A stretch of DNA of 64,000 nt, from the NCBI GenBank assembly GCA_037447435.1, contig JBBIGR010000012.1:1-64000 (forward strand), read 5' to 3'. This document shows positions 40,830 through 64,000 of the stretch, in pieces (the first letter of the stretch is position 1; each line of letters opens with the position of its first letter). The translations under genes were made by a program, and so were the position numbers. Below the pieces are notes generated by a model, which ran no database searches, was not told the DNA's origin, and was given only the letters and a program-made list of their open reading frames with translations. Origin of the DNA: Fibrobacteria bacterium (GTDB lineage Bacteria; Fibrobacterota; Chitinivibrionia; Chitinivibrionales; FEN-1185).

Positions 40830-41106
40830 AGTCACCTCGCTCGGATCAATTTGTGTTTCATGTAAAAAACGATATTCACACAAAAATATATCCCGATACG
40901 CCCAATTACATAAAAACCCATGTTTAACTTTTTTTAAAATACTGTTAAAAGTGTGATGATAATCACAACCTGAAATTTAACAGTATTATATATTTTGTTC
41001 ATGCCCATTGGAACTACATTGCGGGAAAAAGTTTTTTTCAATGAAGCATACGCACTTTTTTTGCGATAACTACCGATATGGTTAATAAAAATCAAGGAGG
41101 CCGTTG

Positions 41107-43278
41107 ATGCCGCCCAAAAAAGCCAATCAGGCGCAGTTTTATTTTTTCTCGGGGACGCTGAGTCATGACACCTTTGAAGTTATGAATTTTTCAGGTACGG
41201 ATAGAATATCAAGCACCTATAAATTCAGCCTTATGCTCATATCCCATCGCGCCGATATTTCACCCGATGACGTCGTCAACAAGGCAGGGACTTTGATGAT
41301 TTTTAGGGACGGCGAATATTATCCCTATTCGGGTATAGTTTCGGAATTTAGGTTTCTTGGAAAAAGCCTGGACCGCGCGACCTATTGCCTCACTCTTGTC
41401 CCGAAGCTTTGGTTGCTTAATCTGAATATACAGACAAGGATTTTCCAGAAAAAAAAGGTTAATCAGATCATAAAGCTCGTGCTCGACGGCGCAAACTTGT
41501 CCGATTATTACAGGTTCCAAATTGACGAAAGCAAATACGCTGAACAGGAATACGTCGTTCAATATCAGGAATCCGATTTTAACTTCATATCCCGGCTCAT
41601 GGAAGCAAACGGTATTTGGTACTTTTTTAACGAAAATCCGATTTTGGCCGAAGAACTCGACGGATCGACCGGCGTGGAACAAATGGTCATATCCGACAAG
41701 GCCTCGTCTTTTGAATTTATTGCAACGACCTCCGATGTTTTATTCCGCACGGTTTCGGGCATGGCGGAACAAATTGATACCGATGAAAAAGAGTCGATTC
41801 ATGACATTGAACTGTTCCGTCAGGTTATCTCAAAAGAAGTCCTTTTAAAGGATTATAACTACCGCACTCCGGAAATCGATCTGCGTGGTCGTAAACCGGT
41901 TAAAACCGGCGATGTCGGTACCGTGTACAGCTATGGCGAACATTTCAAAAACACTACGGAGGCCGACCGGCTTGCCGAAGTATCGGCAAACCGAATTTCG
42001 ACCCAGAAGATATCCATAGACGGAAGCGGCAATTGCCGCGGTCTTCGTGCCGGGAAACGATTTACCCTTCAGGAACATTTTCTGGATACGATGAACGGCA
42101 AATACGTTGTTACTCAAGTGACGCATCAAGGCAGTCATACAATGGAAGGCGACAGCATGAACGTCTACACCTATGCCAATAGGTTTAATTGCATTCCTGC
42201 CGCGTCTGCCGATTCATACAGACCCTTACAGCGGACGCCGGTTCCGCGTGTCCACGGAATCATGACTGCTCAAATCGAAGCAAACGGATCGAATTATGCC
42301 GCACTCGACGACATGGGCAGGTATAAGGTTCGTATGCCTTTTGATTTGTCGAATGCGAAAAATTATGAGGCCTCCCGTTATATCCGGCTGGCGCAGCCCT
42401 ATGCGGGCTCGAATTACGGCATGCATTTTCCTTCACATGAAGGCACGGAAATGGTTTGGGCGTGCATAGACGGCAACCCCGACCGCCCGCTCGGTTTGGC
42501 AACGGTGCCAAATGCGAATACCATTTCTCCTGTTGTCAGTGCAAACAAACAGCAAAATCTTATTCGAACCGCGGGAGGAAACGAGCTTTTGCTCGATGAT
42601 ACCGATGCCAAGCAAAAAGCGAGGCTCACGACAAAATCTAAGCATACGCTCGAAATGGACGATGATCTTAAACGGGTTTTTGTCTCGTCCAAAGACCAGA
42701 ACAAGCTTTTGCTCGATGATAAAAACGAAGTCGTGTCCTGGAACGGCAAAAGCCATTCCATAACCATGACGTATAAGAGCGGCAGCGAAAGTATCGTCAT
42801 TACGACAAAAGACGGCCATATCGTGAAAATGGACGACAAAAACAAAAAATTGACAATACAGACAAAGGCCGGCAACATCATCGACATGGACGATTCGGGC
42901 AAAAAAATTGCCATGGCCGATTCCGCGGGCAAAAACAAGGTTACTTTGGACGGCGACGGCAATAAAATCCTTATAGACTCCCAAGGTGAAATACAGATCA
43001 GCGCAGCAAAGGATTTAACGATAAAAGCCGCGAACATCAAAATGACCTCGCAAGGCAAAATCGACATGCAGGCTTCTGGTGATTTCACGGTCAAAGGTAT
43101 GAAGGTTTCCCAAAAAGCGGACATGGATTTCGAGGCTAAAGGCATGAATGTTAAAGTGGAAGCTGATATGAATATGACTATCAAGGGCGGCATGCAGACA
43201 AAAGTCGGCGGCATGATGACCGAACTTTCGGGTGATACAATGGCAAAGGTTAAAGGCGCGATCGTCATGATAAATTGA
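41107..43278 (+). CDS. vgrG: Type VI secretion spike protein VgrG/TssI (orphan)
   Basis: LVPKLWLL..RIFQ, VQYQESDFNFISRLME.NGIWYFF, DYNYRTP, DDMGRYKV, RLAQPYAG..YGMHFP, GNPDRP; C-terminal beta-helix ending VKGAIVMIN; RBS AGGAGG. Confidence 0.93.
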   Translation: MPPKKANQAQFYFFSGTLSHDTFEVMNFSGTDRISSTYKFSLMLISHRADISPDDVVNKAGTLMIFRDGEYYPYSGIVSEFRFLGKSLDRATYCLTLVPKLWLLNLNIQTRIFQKKKVNQIIKLVLDGANLSDYYRFQIDESKYAEQEYVVQYQESDFNFISRLMEANGIWYFFNENPILAEELDGSTGVEQMVISDKASSFEFIATTSDVLFRTVSGMAEQIDTDEKESIHDIELFRQVISKEVLLKDYNYRTPEIDLRGRKPVKTGDVGTVYSYGEHFKNTTEADRLAEVSANRISTQKISIDGSGNCRGLRAGKRFTLQEHFLDTMNGKYVVTQVTHQGSHTMEGDSMNVYTYANRFNCIPAASADSYRPLQRTPVPRVHGIMTAQIEANGSNYAALDDMGRYKVRMPFDLSNAKNYEASRYIRLAQPYAGSNYGMHFPSHEGTEMVWACIDGNPDRPLGLATVPNANTISPVVSANKQQNLIRTAGGNELLLDDTDAKQKARLTTKSKHTLEMDDDLKRVFVSSKDQNKLLLDDKNEVVSWNGKSHSITMTYKSGSESIVITTKDGHIVKMDDKNKKLTIQTKAGNIIDMDDSGKKIAMADSAGKNKVTLDGDGNKILIDSQGEIQISAAKDLTIKAANIKMTSQGKIDMQASGDFTVKGMKVSQKADMDFEAKGMNVKVEADMNMTIKGGMQTKVGGMMTELSGDTMAKVKGAIVMIN

Positions 43279-43431: not shown

Positions 43432-44472
43432 ATGAACCAAAGTCGTTGTTTTTGCACAAAGTCGTTCTTGCTTTTTTCCCTTTCTGCAATTTTATTTTCT
43501 TCGAAAGCAACGGTATTCATTGCCACCGACACAATTTCCCTCAAAGGTAAACAGGTCATTGTCCGGGCTTCGTCGGAGCTAAAATCCTTAAAAAACGATC
43601 CGGTGACGAATAGTTTAAAGAACCTTTACGACAACGATTCCACGACGCGTTGGATAGAAGGCAGCCAACTCACCGGTGCGGGCGAATGGCTTGATATTAA
43701 ATACCCTTCTAAAAGTAAATTCAGGGGAATGATTTTCGGGCTCGGATGCAGGAAAGATTTTATGTGTATGGAGGATTATAGCATACCTTTGACCATCAAG
43801 GTAAAAATAGATGACAAACCGACCTTCGATTATTCCATCGATTGGGACACAAAAGACGACGCTCGTAACAGCATTACGCGCCAGGAAGTTAATATGCGTA
43901 AAGCAATGTTCTGGTTCAATACCGACACCGCATTTACAACCGCGTCAATACAAGTAAAATTCGAAACAGTGCAAAACGGGCAGCGATACCAGAAACTTGC
44001 AATGTCGGACCTTGAACCGATCGATGCCGACAACACTCAATTCGATTTGTTAAACATCCTGAAAAACATCACCATTAACCCAAACGACATGGGTACGGTC
44101 AATTCGCCCGTAATTATGTTGGGCCAGGATTCGCCAGCCCGTATCAAGCAATGTCTTGATAGCGTTTATAGCGACCAGGGTTCTTCGTGGAAAAACGATT
44201 CAGCCAAAATCGATTTCGGCCTAAACGTTGGAATGCATGCTATTACCGATCCGGCAGAACTTACCGCCCTTATCGGTGTTTTAAAGCAGTTATTCTTAAG
44301 AGACAATAAACTTATCCGATTCAGGACTGTTGGCCGTACAATGACCTATATGATGAAGATCGGCCCAGTATCAATCGGCGACAATACGTGGGACATTTGG
44401 CGTTATATCAGCACTACTACGTCATCAAAGGGCATTGAACTGTCCATAAAATATGTTCCGTTTAAAAATTAG
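43432..44472 (+). CDS. Secreted protein with a discoidin/galactose-binding-like N-terminal domain
   Basis: Signal peptide; ASSEL..NLYDNDSTTRWIEG..G.GEWL motif. Confidence 0.65.
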   Translation: MNQSRCFCTKSFLLFSLSAILFSSKATVFIATDTISLKGKQVIVRASSELKSLKNDPVTNSLKNLYDNDSTTRWIEGSQLTGAGEWLDIKYPSKSKFRGMIFGLGCRKDFMCMEDYSIPLTIKVKIDDKPTFDYSIDWDTKDDARNSITRQEVNMRKAMFWFNTDTAFTTASIQVKFETVQNGQRYQKLAMSDLEPIDADNTQFDLLNILKNITINPNDMGTVNSPVIMLGQDSPARIKQCLDSVYSDQGSSWKNDSAKIDFGLNVGMHAITDPAELTALIGVLKQLFLRDNKLIRFRTVGRTMTYMMKIGPVSIGDNTWDIWRYISTTTSSKGIELSIKYVPFKN

Positions 44473-44918: not shown

Positions 44919-46031
44919 ATGAAAAAGTATTATTTGCTTTTTGTAGGCATTGTAATATTCACAACTACTTTAAGCGCTCAAACCGCTTCAACATGGCCTC
45001 ACAATAACGGCAAATATGGGAAAGGAACAAGGTTTATTAGTGTTTTTAATGAAATGACAAAAAATATTACTGTTTATTTTAGGTCCACAAGTGATAATCC
45101 GACGTTGGTGAAATGCTCTATATTGCCGTCGAAAGATACAATAGTCCAACTTCCAAATTCCTGGTCTTCTGGCCAAATATATGCAACGTATGATACGTCA
45201 TACCAGAAACCCTATGTCTCGTTAGGTGAATGGACTCTCGGAGCCTCTGGCGCCGGTTATGCGGATTTTTACGATGTTTCTTTTGTTGACGCGTTCAGCT
45301 TGCCTATGCTTATGGGGCCGGTAGTCGGAACATATACAAAAAGAAGACCGGCCGCTCCGGATAGTATGTATGACTGCGGAGCAGTTCGATGTACAACAGA
45401 CTTGATTCCTATTTGTCCGCTCCTACAACAAAAGAAAAATGCGGCCGGAGTTTGCATAGCTTGCCTGTCGGGTTGTCAGACTGCGCATCAAAATAACTGG
45501 CCACAAGCACGGATAGATTCCTTTTGTTGTTCCGGCCATGACAGTATTCCGGCAACTTGTCCTGCTTATACCATTTCCAATTGGTTTAAACAACTAAACT
45601 CCGACGGCTATAGTTATGCGTATGATGATCTGAAAAGCACCTTTGTTTGTGTGCCGCCAACAGCCGACCATTATGGCCCCGATTATTATGTCATATTCGG
45701 AACCTCCTATCCGCCATCCGTCCAAGACCCTCGGAAAATCGGAACATCCGTTTTATCAAATACCACAACAAATATGAGAATGAAGGGGTTGACCTTTTAT
45801 GTAGACCGTCATAATATCTTGCAATACAACATTGCTTCCGAGCAGTTCTCCCAAATGTCGCTTTCAATTTACTCATGCAACGGCATGCTTGTATCAAAAC
45901 AATCGTTGAATTGCGCTAAGGGAAAAATCTCTATGGCAAGCTTGCCCCCCGGGGCGTATGTCCTCAATATTAATTCCGCTCGGATTTCGGCTTCTCAAAG
46001 TGTTTTCGTAACCAAAAACGAAGGCAATTAA
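44919..46031 (+). CDS. Secreted thaumatin/PR-5-like protein with C-terminal sorting-like domain
   Basis: Thaumatin motifs SLGEWTL, DFYDVSFVDAFSLPM, C..DL...CP, CLSGC, CC, FK....GYSYAYDD..STFVC; signal peptide; C-terminal LSIYSCNGMLV..LPPGAYVL. Confidence 0.88.
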   Translation: MKKYYLLFVGIVIFTTTLSAQTASTWPHNNGKYGKGTRFISVFNEMTKNITVYFRSTSDNPTLVKCSILPSKDTIVQLPNSWSSGQIYATYDTSYQKPYVSLGEWTLGASGAGYADFYDVSFVDAFSLPMLMGPVVGTYTKRRPAAPDSMYDCGAVRCTTDLIPICPLLQQKKNAAGVCIACLSGCQTAHQNNWPQARIDSFCCSGHDSIPATCPAYTISNWFKQLNSDGYSYAYDDLKSTFVCVPPTADHYGPDYYVIFGTSYPPSVQDPRKIGTSVLSNTTTNMRMKGLTFYVDRHNILQYNIASEQFSQMSLSIYSCNGMLVSKQSLNCAKGKISMASLPPGAYVLNINSARISASQSVFVTKNEGN

Positions 46032-60200: not shown

Positions 60201-60482
60201 CTATGCAGGAAAAACCACTAAAAAAGCGCTATAGAGACTTAAAAAAATCATCAGCAGTTGGACAATTGAATAGACAAAAGCCCGTTTCAATCCTTTTTCC
60301 TTTTTAGAAAGAATTAATAAAATATGGCACACGATGTTTATTGACATGTGAACAAAAAACCCGACTGCTGTCCCGATGAAACAATAAAATTGCCACATCG
60401 CACGGGGAGTTGTCCAAAAAGCATAAAAAACAATACAGAACATCGCAAGCAGAATAACGTCTATAAGCAGATGTCGGCTCAT
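60201..60482 (-). CDS. Small three-TM membrane protein (candidate immunity protein)
   Basis: 93 aa with three hydrophobic segments; starts 14 bp after the preceding gene. Confidence 0.55.
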   Translation of the reverse strand: MSRHLLIDVILLAMFCIVFYAFWTTPRAMWQFYCFIGTAVGFFVHMSINIVCHILLILSKKEKGLKRAFVYSIVQLLMIFLSLYSAFLVVFPA

Positions 60483-60496
60483 TCTTTTCCGGTCGA

Positions 60497-61615
60497 TTAA
60501 TTTTTAAAAAGCCCGTCAATAGTATCGAATATTTTGTCAATAACGGAATTATCCGCTTTTGTATGCGCCGGATCAGACGGATTCGGATCCGAGGTTCCGA
60601 CAATCGTACTACCTTTATGTTTGTGGTTGTCCAACAATGCCTCGACAAATATCTTGGAGATTTCTGTTGCAATTCCAGGCACATGACGTAATATCGAAAA
60701 TATTATGTTCGAAGTCAAGGCGTGATTATCCTTTAATCGAACAGTGATATACGGCACTGCAAAAATTTCAATTTTCCCGGCAATACTTTTCATAACCGCA
60801 TCTTTATTCGTTATTGCCCCAGAAGCGTCGAATGTTGCGCTGTTCATGGATAAAAAATATCCGGCTCTGTTTTTCCAGAGGTCGGAACCGGCATCAAGAT
60901 ACGCTGTCAACGCATCGGCAAGCGACGGTTTATTCTTAAAAGCAAGATCGCATGGACCGGTAAAAGGAGGCGTTTCAGATGCGATTAAATATCCGGCCAC
61001 ATCACCTTCGAGATTTACAGAAGCGCCGTAATCATGTTCATTTGTAAAAAGAGTCTTTGCCCGCATTTTTGGGTTTGAGATTCTTTTGTACGCGAGCATT
61101 CCCGCGCCGCCGCCGATATCGCCAAGCCAAGTAGAAGTTTCAAGGCCTGTCCCCCCGGTTGGCAATGGCACGGATCTTGAGGTGAAGCTAGCACGAGCTT
61201 GAAGCCCGATTATCGTATGGCCAACATCAAGCGATCTGGAACCATCCTTTACTTCTGCACTGTTTTGTAAAGCTGCGAATAACTCCTGGCCAAGAGCGGG
61301 TCTGGGGTCGGCAGGCATCATTGAAGCGGTGAATATTTGAAATCCGTTATTTCGTGTTGTACTTTTTTCCTTTAAGAAATCCATGCTCCAGGGAGTTCCA
61401 TAATAAATGCCCCGCAACATCGAGATGCGATCGAGGATATCCGTGACACCATGATCAGTCATTTTTTGTTCGGCTACTCTAATCAAGCCAATTAACTCTT
61501 TAAAATTGCGGGCTTTTCTATAATGTGAGACTCGAATGGCGTTACCGGACAATACTTTAAATTTATCGGGTTTGGAAAATTCTATCATTACGGTTTTACG
61601 ATCGTTACCGCTCAT
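60497..61615 (-). CDS. Hypothetical protein, candidate secreted toxin
   Basis: 372-aa ORF with AAGGA RBS and no signal peptide; motifs LRGIYY, DVGH..IGL, TWLGDIG, LEGDVAG. Confidence 0.7.
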   Translation of the reverse strand: MSGNDRKTVMIEFSKPDKFKVLSGNAIRVSHYRKARNFKELIGLIRVAEQKMTDHGVTDILDRISMLRGIYYGTPWSMDFLKEKSTTRNNGFQIFTASMMPADPRPALGQELFAALQNSAEVKDGSRSLDVGHTIIGLQARASFTSRSVPLPTGGTGLETSTWLGDIGGGAGMLAYKRISNPKMRAKTLFTNEHDYGASVNLEGDVAGYLIASETPPFTGPCDLAFKNKPSLADALTAYLDAGSDLWKNRAGYFLSMNSATFDASGAITNKDAVMKSIAGKIEIFAVPYITVRLKDNHALTSNIIFSILRHVPGIATEISKIFVEALLDNHKHKGSTIVGTSDPNPSDPAHTKADNSVIDKIFDTIDGLFKN

Positions 61616-61636: not shown

Positions 61637-63640
61637 TTAAAAAACGGCAACTCCGCTGTTCCGTTTTACCAATGCCAACTTACCCAAATGAATTCTGCGT
61701 ACTTGATTCCAATTAAAACCGATAACGCCGTATTGTTGGCCGGGTATTTGTCTAAATGTCGTTGCCGTTGCCAGAGCGGGATCCGAGGCGGGGTCGGCAG
61801 AAGGCTCATCAAAATTGGTTTTCATTTTTTCGAACAGGTCATTTTCGGAAAGTGTGCCTAAAATGCCATGTCCGATATATTTATCAACCCCTGCCTCTTT
61901 GCCGATATAAATGACATTCTCTCCCGCCCACGCGCCTTTCGGATGCTTTGCTCCGTAACGCTCGTCATTTTTATAATAAAGCCAATCCCCTTTTTTCAAT
62001 TCCGAAGTATCGGCAACAGTCACTTCGTCTATCAGCGACTCTAATCGCGGGCAAGCTAAAGATTTTGATAATATCAATCCAGGATTTAAGACGGATTGCC
62101 ATTTGAAATATTCGGAAAAAACATCTTTTCCCAATGTTTCAAGAATTCCCTTTAAATACACCGCAAGAAGCGCCATATAGCATTCCAATATGCATGGCGA
62201 ATGATAAAAAATCGAATATACCGCTTTCCATGGCAACATACCTTCCCGGAGAACGCAAATCAAAGGATTTATCGTTTTCCAAAAAATCGGATCAACGGTT
62301 GTCGTACCTCCAAAATCAATTGATTTGTTTTTCATTTCCTGAACAATGCTATTTCGTACCATTAAGACATCCAGAATCGACAGCGTTTGCGGGCCAACGC
62401 TTCCCTCTTGCAATATCGGCGCCTGCGCATGATTGTATTTTTTCTGGAAATTTACAACTGCACTTCTGGTTTCTTGACCGAAATCCCTATCGGTTTTGTA
62501 AACAGGCAACACAGTAGAATCATCTTCGAGCAGGGTGTTCTGAACTTTTCCAACACCTTCGCCGGAATCCCCTTCGCGAAGATAATATGACTTATTTCCT
62601 TTAAATGCAAATTCGAGGTTTGCGCTATGAATCATATCATTTCGCAGCTGACGCCCGTTTTTTTCTCTATCAGTATTACTTTGTTCATATATAGCATCCA
62701 AATCGTCGGGCGCATTTACAATTTTATAAGCATCCGATACTTCGAGTGCGGGACTTGGATCTTGTTCGACATTAAATGCAAGCTGTACCGGGCCCGGCGG
62801 TATGTCTAGTTCCGAAATAACCCCCGAGGAATCGATTGTTCCCTGACGTTGAGACCCGTCTGCAAATTGCAAAGTGTACGGAATATTAATCTGATCGAAA
62901 TCATTAAAATTCGTAAGATCGAGATTCAGATCGTCCTTGAATTTCAAAAAGCCACTCTCTTGTTTTTCTCCGATTCTTACACCGTCTATGATTACGATAA
63001 AAAAATATTGCACGGGAACATAGTGTTTATGATGCTTTTGACGTTCTTCTTCCGTCACAATCGATTCCGCATCACCTGTGTAATCGAATTCCCAATTAAC
63101 ATCTATTTTGTCATTTTGAATTTCTACGGGAAACGAACAATACGCTTCATGATGGCCGTCGGGATCGTATTCATACACAACCACTTTTGCTTCAGTTCCG
63201 GCAAGCGGATTGACAAATTGAACAGAAAGCGTAACGACATCACCACGGCGGACCTCATTTTTATCCCAGCACATTTTTGATATCTTGATTGGAGGTCCCA
63301 CTGGTATTGTAGACAATGAATCCGTTTTTAAACCATGTTTCGGCAGCTTGGCTTCGAATCCGATTTGAGCGCCCAACTCCACCTTTTCGGGTATCGGTAA
63401 ACTCCCGATAAATTCATTATTGTAAATTTTGCCTTTTATCGTTCCCGGCGCTTTACCCTTGGAGCTGAAACCCTTTATTTCTATGGATGAGCCTTCGGCA
63501 ACCGCATAGGTAACGACTTTGACTTGTGCATCCAGGCCGCCGTGCGCGGCTGTTGACAGCCATGAAGCCTCGACAATTTCCGAATCGAGTTTGATTTTCT
63601 CTTTTTTATCGGTTGAGACTTGATATTCGCCGTCCATCAT
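61637..63640 (-). CDS. Putative T6SS cargo: N-terminal beta-rich modules, peptidoglycan-binding domain, and Tgl-like transglutaminase (NlpC/P60-like) domain
   Basis: PG_binding_1 motifs LREGDSG..V..VQ, DFG.ET..AV..FQ, G.VGPQT; Tgl motifs P.FW, LREGMLP..A..IF, LECY, YLKG, KGDWLYYKN, WAGENVIY.G, YIGHGI. Confidence 0.8.
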   Translation of the reverse strand: MMDGEYQVSTDKKEKIKLDSEIVEASWLSTAAHGGLDAQVKVVTYAVAEGSSIEIKGFSSKGKAPGTIKGKIYNNEFIGSLPIPEKVELGAQIGFEAKLPKHGLKTDSLSTIPVGPPIKISKMCWDKNEVRRGDVVTLSVQFVNPLAGTEAKVVVYEYDPDGHHEAYCSFPVEIQNDKIDVNWEFDYTGDAESIVTEEERQKHHKHYVPVQYFFIVIIDGVRIGEKQESGFLKFKDDLNLDLTNFNDFDQINIPYTLQFADGSQRQGTIDSSGVISELDIPPGPVQLAFNVEQDPSPALEVSDAYKIVNAPDDLDAIYEQSNTDREKNGRQLRNDMIHSANLEFAFKGNKSYYLREGDSGEGVGKVQNTLLEDDSTVLPVYKTDRDFGQETRSAVVNFQKKYNHAQAPILQEGSVGPQTLSILDVLMVRNSIVQEMKNKSIDFGGTTTVDPIFWKTINPLICVLREGMLPWKAVYSIFYHSPCILECYMALLAVYLKGILETLGKDVFSEYFKWQSVLNPGLILSKSLACPRLESLIDEVTVADTSELKKGDWLYYKNDERYGAKHPKGAWAGENVIYIGKEAGVDKYIGHGILGTLSENDLFEKMKTNFDEPSADPASDPALATATTFRQIPGQQYGVIGFNWNQVRRIHLGKLALVKRNSGVAVF

Positions 63641-63663: not shown

Positions 63664-64000
63664 TTAGGCTTGGGGCTTTAATAATAAAAAACTTGCGACG
63701 ATTTTATCAAAGTCGTTCGCTATGGTTTTTAATGTTTTTTTGGAAAATGTTCCGGTAATCACAAACGCCTTTGCTTCTTTGATAAAATAGAATTGTTTTT
63801 GGTATAAAACATAATTTTCCGCAGGAACATATTTGTAAACGACTTCCAACGCCTGGGTTCCGTCGGGGAGTTTTTTATCAACCTCGCCGAGCATTTCAAA
63901 ACCGGGCATAACCTGTTTGGGGCCGCTCAGTTGCGCTTGCGCGTAATCTTTTAATGTTGTTTCTTTTGAAATAAACGGGTCTATGAGCAGAACCAAATTA
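63664..64000 (-). CDS. DcrB/DUF1795 (Eag-like) family protein, 5' end outside the window
   Basis: L..YAQAQL, LYQKQFY, ITGTF, FDKIVASF (PsbP/Mog1-like fold motifs); the reading frame runs to the window edge. Confidence 0.65.
   Translation of the reverse strand, partial: NLVLLIDPFISKETTLKDYAQAQLSGPKQVMPGFEMLGEVDKKLPDGTQALEVVYKYVPAENYVLYQKQFYFIKEAKAFVITGTFSKKTLKTIANDFDKIVASFLLLKPQA

Follow-up and report, generated by a model that had tools for sequence, protein, structure and literature searches.

The transglutaminase Tgl of Bacillus subtilis is known as a structural enzyme of the spore coat (PMC6490927, PMC10318531, in the sections available to us), and the accessible literature on its Pfam family, PF20085, describes it only as a spore-coat cross-linker. 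The 64,000-nucleotide stretch of DNA analysed here (the window) is the start of contig JBBIGR010000012.1 (C12) of a Fibrobacteria bacterium (GenBank assembly GCA_037447435.1), the contig itself extending beyond it. Close to the end of the window, on the minus strand (61637..63640), is a gene for a 667-aa protein that terminates in a domain of this family, and which the open reading frame list, domain scan and hydropathy profile mark as a candidate cargo effector of a type VI secretion system (T6SS). That it is T6SS cargo of some kind we consider quite likely; that it is a T6SS-delivered enzyme acylating on protein glutamine, and so cross-linking or deamidating its targets, is the reading we prefer, tentatively and at slightly less than an even chance.

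The nearest precedent is EAT14 of Chitinophaga rupis, a DUF4157-LysM-Transglut_prok protein of an extracellular contractile injection system (eCIS), which in the part of the paper accessible to us caused Cys-dependent killing of E. coli and yeast (PMC11297309). In EAT14, too, a transglutaminase-like Cys enzyme forms the C-terminal end of a protein delivered by a contractile injection system, and the layout of EAT14 recurs among homologues of our protein (eCIS_core-LysM-TGL in P0031, P0048, P0102 and P0113). It is set apart, by description and not by sequence, in having a domain of PF09017 (the Streptomyces type, compared with PDB 5M6Q) and not PF20085, a Cys-Asp-His triad, an eCIS and not a T6SS as its vehicle, and no listed immunity gene. 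Tox-TGase, from the portion of its description consulted, is also a papain-like toxin tip, for which cross-linking, polyamination or cleavage of proteins has been proposed, but is another family, with AvrPphE-like effectors as its prototype, a C-H-D triad and no mention there of Bacillus Tgl (PMC3482391). The NlpC/P60 or CHAP effectors of T6SSs (Tse1 and the Tae families) share the papain-like NlpC/P60 core and the T6SS context, and differ in having a Cys-His pair where our protein has Cys-Glu, in a domain about half as long, and in a structural score of at most 7.2. A literature search, with subscription papers largely outside its scope, found no Tgl-type transglutaminase as a T6SS effector or toxin. 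The searched terms were likewise absent from the main text of bioRxiv 2021.10.19.465003, whose supplements, like those of PMC8213781 and PMC3482391, could list the domain unnamed.

From its N-terminus the 667-aa protein is composed of a carrier module that we called Ndom (aa 1-290; 62771..63640), an acidic linker, a peptidoglycan (PG)-binding-like domain (aa 360-422; 62375..62563) and the Tgl domain (aa 426-667; 61640..62365), all on the minus strand. The hydropathy profile had neither an evident signal peptide nor a transmembrane segment, its lone marginal peak (1.62) being the catalytic helix, and the Pfam scan produced no match for the carrier module and none to eCIS_core anywhere in the protein. 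The PG-binding-like domain scored below the Pfam cut-off for PG_binding_1 (PF01471; 17.3 bits vs 23, E 0.0055), and in P0002, a relative with 52% identity, the same domain passes it at 25.1 bits.

Profile and structure comparisons placed aa 426-667 in the papain-like Tgl family. The domain has the Tgl fold, scores 55.9 bits against PF20085 (curated cut-off 23.7), and is 28% identical to the enzymes of B. subtilis (PDB 4P8I; PF20085; NF002869) and Geobacillus (7C9J). It reached just 43.8 bits against the spore-coat equivalog model NF002869, for which the cut-off is 307, and because of this the protein is, as judged from profile scores, not an orthologue of spore Tgl. Whereas the Bacillus and Geobacillus enzymes are stand-alone proteins, here the domain shares its chain with a carrier and a PG-binding-like domain and is encoded in a PAAR operon, in a genome with no match to Spo0A.

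The catalytic dyad of B. subtilis Tgl is Cys116 with Glu187, the latter replaceable by Glu115, and the entrance to its tunnel is lined by F69, W149, Y171, W184, R185, N188 and H200, according to the sections at hand (PMC6490927). By alignment, the counterparts in our protein are E486, C487, E574, F443, Y555, W571, N575 and H591. Glu486-Cys487 (62180..62185, minus strand) corresponds to Glu115-Cys116, and the W571-A-G-E574-N575 segment (61916..61930, minus strand) to W184, R185, E187 and N188, so that F443, Y555, W571 and N575 match the tunnel entrance and Ala stands in the place of R185. Conservation was counted over 152 domain rows from the best 150 of 365 representatives, in which Cys occupies the Cys487 position in 147 of 148 filled rows, Glu or Asp precedes it in 147 of 148, and E574, N575 and W571 are kept in 120, 126 and 104 of the 152, respectively. 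Since Cys, the preceding acid and E574 are so widely retained, the catalytic pair is, from these alignments, under constraint across the family. The sequence-only reading of this DNA had proposed a Tgl-type domain with an intact Cys, Glu and His; the domain, the Cys and the Glu all stood, and the catalytic standing of the His did not. The residue concerned, His591 (61868..61870, minus strand), is His in 20 of 152 rows and Phe in 106, and aligns with H200, which the accessible text regards as a substrate-interaction residue (PMC6490927). A different histidine, His566 (61943..61945, minus strand), lies in an extra KHP loop and is present in 130 of 149 rows, and in the profile alignment to 4P8I and 7C9J it is missing from both solved Tgl enzymes.

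The position of the gene suggested how such a domain might leave the cell. Along the minus strand there is an uninterrupted run of genes for PAAR, a 785-aa protein, a DUF3592 membrane protein, a 264-aa protein (p264), DcrB, the Tgl protein, a 372-aa protein (p372) and a 93-aa protein, separated by -1, 37, 86, 50, 23, 21 and 14 bp, which is probably co-transcribed. The PAAR gene (C12:68534-69025, minus strand) lies beyond the window, upstream of the Tgl gene, and the DcrB/Eag-like gene for 145 aa (63664..64000, minus strand, running past the edge of the window; complete at C12:63664-64101) ends 23 bp upstream of it, so that a spike protein and a chaperone/adaptor both precede it on the same strand. 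In the host genome, which is 99.57% complete, a search covering TssA/B/C/F/M, Hcp, VgrG and PAAR (TssE, G, H, J, K and L being outside it) found TssA, TssB, TssC and Hcp on C1, TssF on C28, TssM on C25, one PAAR gene, and a sole VgrG gene (41104..43278, plus strand; TIGR03361, 321.7 bits vs 186.35), 18 kb from the Tgl gene. The system is dispersed over C1, C12, C25 and C28, and on C12 itself 25 kb lie between VgrG and PAAR. Spo0A_C, the sole sporulation marker searched, had no match in the genome, its control being positive in B. subtilis; the eCIS gp19 tube had none either, though its control was likewise silent. Both the T6SS-type context and the lack of sporulation genes, as first proposed from the window, were thereby borne out, the latter by one marker.

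The carrier module tied the protein to this context more closely. It was matched in 54 of 296 genomes of the phylum, including all 7 of the family, a tally that counts the host's own genome and the unpublished G253, and it occurs either on its own, encoded by a gene for about 300 aa that precedes a cargo gene, or fused to the cargo. The second half of the module extends the PAAR proteins of four loci (L072, L073, L075 and L076), and in another (L078) the module follows an Hcp domain. The cargo in relatives comprises amidohydrolases, C39-like (Peptidase_C39_2), SLT and beta-lactamase-like domains and a weakly M15-like peptidase. Another fusion, on the same carrier and with a DUF3828 gene behind it, has a domain matching PDB 4HZ9_A (E 5e-19), which we take to be the T6SS amidase Tae3 and which is a further point of likeness to the Tae effectors. 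The most direct comparison was provided by genome G039 (L071), in which PAAR, the 785-aa homologue, DUF3592, the p264 homologue and DcrB are followed by a separate carrier gene and then an amidohydrolase in place of Tgl; DUF3592 and p264 are unlikely partners of Tgl, since both remain there without it. In the 20 larger regions, hand-picked from the best matches on long contigs, 19 contained the carrier, with PAAR, VgrG or Hcp in 7 of the 19 and DcrB in 8, and 13 of 29 short loci had DcrB within 1.5 kb. Tgl itself had a patchy distribution, occurring in 3 of the 296 genomes of the phylum and in none of the 5 in the genus. A conserved N-terminal delivery module with a variable C-terminal enzyme is thus what was found, and a constant carrier with patchy, exchangeable enzymes is the pattern of polymorphic effectors.

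The carrier loci had other noteworthy content. The module precedes or joins many cargos (the set L037-L085), several without a Pfam match (L085:2229-4646, L074:6800-8758 and L073:10978-12462). The commonest cargo behind it is a TIM-barrel amidohydrolase (PF04909; L066, L067, L068, L069, L071, L077, L079, L080, L081 and L083), whose genes are followed by signal- or lipoprotein-like genes and which may itself be undescribed as T6SS cargo, while two environmental genomes belonging to the phylum (L057 and L058) have the carrier fused to a beta-lactamase-like (PF13354) domain.

On our preferred account, the 667-aa protein would be a cargo effector of the genome's own T6SS, docked through its N-terminal module on the PAAR/VgrG spike or Hcp tube, with a DcrB-like chaperone probably assisting its loading. 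Once inside a neighbouring bacterium, it might conceivably be anchored in the envelope by the PG-binding-like domain, and Cys487 with Glu574/Glu486 would form an acyl-enzyme on protein glutamine side chains, which would be resolved by lysine (cross-linking) or by water (deamidation) to the detriment of the target. Secretion is the step that we regard as quite probable, toxicity as likely though a little less so.

Homologues elsewhere provided an independent view of the family. Out of 1.84 billion representatives searched, 365 matched at E<=0.001, and among the best 150 of these, eCIS_core (DUF4157) was above the cut-off in 42, PG_binding_1 in 8, LysM in 6 and the Rhs core motif in 1, with 136 of 152 Tgl domains ending <=60 aa from the C-terminus. 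An N-terminal DUF4157 with a C-terminal toxin is the typical layout of eCIS toxins in the accessible sections of PMC8213781. Pattern scans, a biased sample in which a single short pattern was used, gave 58 loci with Tgl, 23 from genomes (including Nitrosomonas, Saprospiraceae, Myxococcales, Gordonia, Solirubrobacteraceae, Chitinophagaceae, Planctomycetes and Sorangium) and 35 from metagenomes. One of them, L096, encodes a ClpV-like ATPase, VgrG, Tgl, an immunity-like protein (Imm-II, below), DUF4123 and DUF2169, and is an independent T6SS effector locus. In L120 an eCIS_core-Tgl gene lies near genes for the baseplate proteins Phage_base_V and gp25, L013 is situated among several eCIS_core genes, and four loci (L031, L114, L115 and L122) have an Rhs-core-like segment ahead of Tgl. 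The expectation that homologues would be linked to T6SS, VgrG or PAAR genes was therefore right as to an injection system, as in L096, and wrong as to the commonest one, which is the eCIS (DUF4157) and not the T6SS. Judged by these genomic arrangements, the family behaves like the toxic end of proteins delivered by T6SS, eCIS and Rhs systems. Tandem and double forms were also seen: two PG-binding-Tgl-Imm-I units in a myxobacterial metagenome-assembled genome (MAG; L021), two stand-alone Tgl genes without Imm-I or Imm-II in a Bdellovibrionales MAG (L027 and L110), and two Tgl domains in one chain (P0007).

Genes resembling immunity genes were found behind many of the homologues. Two families were recognised, both defined on the same 58 loci (61 Tgl genes) on which they were counted, a circularity that belongs with the points against our preferred reading: Imm-I, of 175 aa with an invariant Pro-Pro, downstream of 29 of the 61 Tgl genes, and Imm-II, of 230-300 aa, downstream of 9. 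Among the others, one Tgl gene had Imm-I in front and 4 had too little room; clustering left Imm-I or Imm-II downstream in 28 of 46 clusters at 90% identity and 14 of 28 at 60%. A scan of five whole genomes found Imm-I nowhere but at the five known places next to Tgl, one of the genomes being without a match. A reverse test used 301 unselected genomes sampled from the phylum of genome G297, 25 of which matched Imm-I; 19 new loci were examined and 5 matches left out, and the only new full-length match was directly behind an eCIS_core-Tgl gene. Judged by eye, Imm-I begins like a lipoprotein in 7 of 29 cases and without a signal peptide in 22, and most Imm-II genes begin with a signal-like stretch. 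If Imm-I is protective, protection would be present in both compartments, which fits a protein substrate better than the wall. By virtue of their position, Imm-I and Imm-II may inhibit Tgl. Seven of the partial Imm-I matches were read, and all were fused to a thioredoxin-like domain; the loci L133-L150, from the same phylum, encode exported thioredoxin-like proteins with a terminal domain distantly related to Imm-I and lacking its Pro-Pro loop.

A number of findings weigh against our preferred reading, some by favouring other activities. The majority of the cargo on the same carrier looks wall-directed, and the Tgl domain, delivered by the same T6SS, could instead hydrolyse the gamma-glutamyl bonds of peptidoglycan stems. 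What NlpC/P60 endopeptidases cut, the gamma-D-Glu-mDAP/Lys bond, closely resembles in its chemistry the gamma-glutamyl-lysine bond made by Tgl. The Cys-His pair of NlpC/P60 or CHAP amidases is absent, with Glu574 standing where the His would be expected, presumably, given the Tgl alignment and the NlpC/P60 motif. Such wall hydrolysis is in our estimation rather unlikely, and if the enzyme is active, chemistry on protein glutamine seems somewhat likelier than hydrolysis of wall or peptides. Also on the unfavourable side, the alignment, at a place adjoining a gap, has no Trp counterpart to W149, which B. subtilis Tgl requires for labelling of BSA in the text available (PMC6490927), and the authors of the EAT14 study, as far as that text was accessible, were unable to exclude a protease activity (PMC11297309). 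With respect to delivery, 108 of the best 150 representatives have no eCIS_core, and 12 of the 19 larger carrier loci are without PAAR, VgrG or Hcp. In the neighbour scan, which covered 81 genes, mostly chosen from 140 listed, plus an earlier set, many PG-binding-Tgl-Imm-I pairs (L020, L024, L029 and L106) had no injection-system gene among the scanned neighbours, and the same was true of many other loci, chiefly actinobacterial.

The remaining difficulties concern immunity. Neither Imm family is behind 18 of the 61 Tgl genes, or 12 of 28 clusters at 60% identity, and 18 of the 19 new Imm-I-profile loci were partial and without Tgl within 1.5 kb. More pointedly, neither Imm-I nor Imm-II had a match in our locus or the whole genome, the nearest homologues with context (L013, L014, L088 and L089) all have Imm-I, and the next gene begins just 21 bp after the Tgl stop. 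The effector may be blocked by an unrelated inhibitor, may attack a substrate absent from its producer, or may be disarmed in practice. The last would accord with the protein being T6SS-linked and yet no working antibacterial toxin in this strain, the cassette having arrived without its immunity gene and being harmless, silent or engaged in cross-linking the cell's own envelope or spike proteins. This, which we think improbable, is favoured by the empty genome search, by the neighbouring p264 and p372, neither of which showed any likeness to the Imm-I profile, and by the structural role of B. subtilis Tgl, whose activity is controlled by substrate docking in the sections consulted (PMC6490927). 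It is countered by a full open frame with every catalytic residue kept, by the filling of the same slot with different enzymes in relatives, which a structural role would not lead one to expect, and by the many validated eCIS toxins that likewise have no adjacent immunity gene in the accessible part of PMC8213781. Alternatively, immunity could be missing because the protein is a cysteine protease or deamidase directed at non-kin such as protists, fungi or distant bacteria, a proposal that draws on the same empty search, on the portion of PMC3482391 at hand, in which transglutaminase-like toxins without immunity genes are called eukaryote-directed, and on the killing of yeast by EAT14 in the accessible text (PMC11297309). 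The PG-binding-like domain immediately ahead of the enzyme, and the immunity-like genes behind 38 of 61 homologues, which imply bacterial targets for the family, make it decidedly improbable.

Returning to T6SS delivery and the genes that accompany it, p372 (60497..61615, minus strand) starts 21 bp downstream of the Tgl stop and is probably a second cargo, not an immunity protein, because in genome G048 its homologue makes up the C-terminal portion of a longer protein (623 aa) having a PG-binding-like segment. Behind the homologue in G048 is a 139-aa membrane protein, and G047 likewise has a small membrane protein; in a similar arrangement, the 93-aa protein (60201..60482, minus strand), with three hydrophobic segments, is from its position a candidate immunity protein for p372. 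The p372 protein (with a weak YkzU-like lead) and the small membrane protein thus make a second candidate cargo-immunity pair, also seen in L124 and L125, and present in 4 of the 296 genomes of the phylum, in one case as a weak match with stops. The PAAR and 785-aa genes (C12:66177-69025; L001:10178-13026) overlap by one base at their stop-start junction, and are also split near the same point in G039 (L071), whereas PAAR and a homologous extension are a single protein in L072, L073, L075, L076 and L080; the separation is either a conserved split or the result of independent breaks. Elsewhere in the window, the gene behind VgrG (43432-44472) has an NADase-type glycan-binding domain (PF25302), its homologue in G066 (L070) also being behind VgrG, and 44919-46031 encodes a bacterial Thaumatin-family domain with a weak secretion C-terminal sorting domain.

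A broader possibility, on the doubtful side in our view, is that the Tgl family consists mainly of polymorphic-toxin domains, widespread in several phyla, delivered by T6SS, eCIS and Rhs systems as protein cross-linking weapons and blocked by Imm-I and Imm-II, with the spore-coat enzyme as one domesticated branch; our Tgl tree contained no Bacillus sequence and is thus silent on the direction of descent. Imm-I and the helical, exported Imm-II might then be undescribed inhibitor families, and the 667-aa protein a member delivered by a T6SS, its carrier module likewise undescribed. Whatever its ancestry, a spore-coat enzyme domain occupies here the place of the toxin, in a protein probably injected into rivals by a bacterium that does not sporulate, and its homologues, being arranged like toxins with protection genes, point to a putative and unrecognised family of bacterial weapons. 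If so, the known antibacterial activities would gain a Cys-Glu enzyme that cross-links or deamidates proteins, two candidate families of natural inhibitors would exist for a minimal, cofactor-free transglutaminase, and many diverged enzymes would become available for protein engineering, while the carrier module is a usable marker for the discovery of T6SS effectors in a little-studied phylum.
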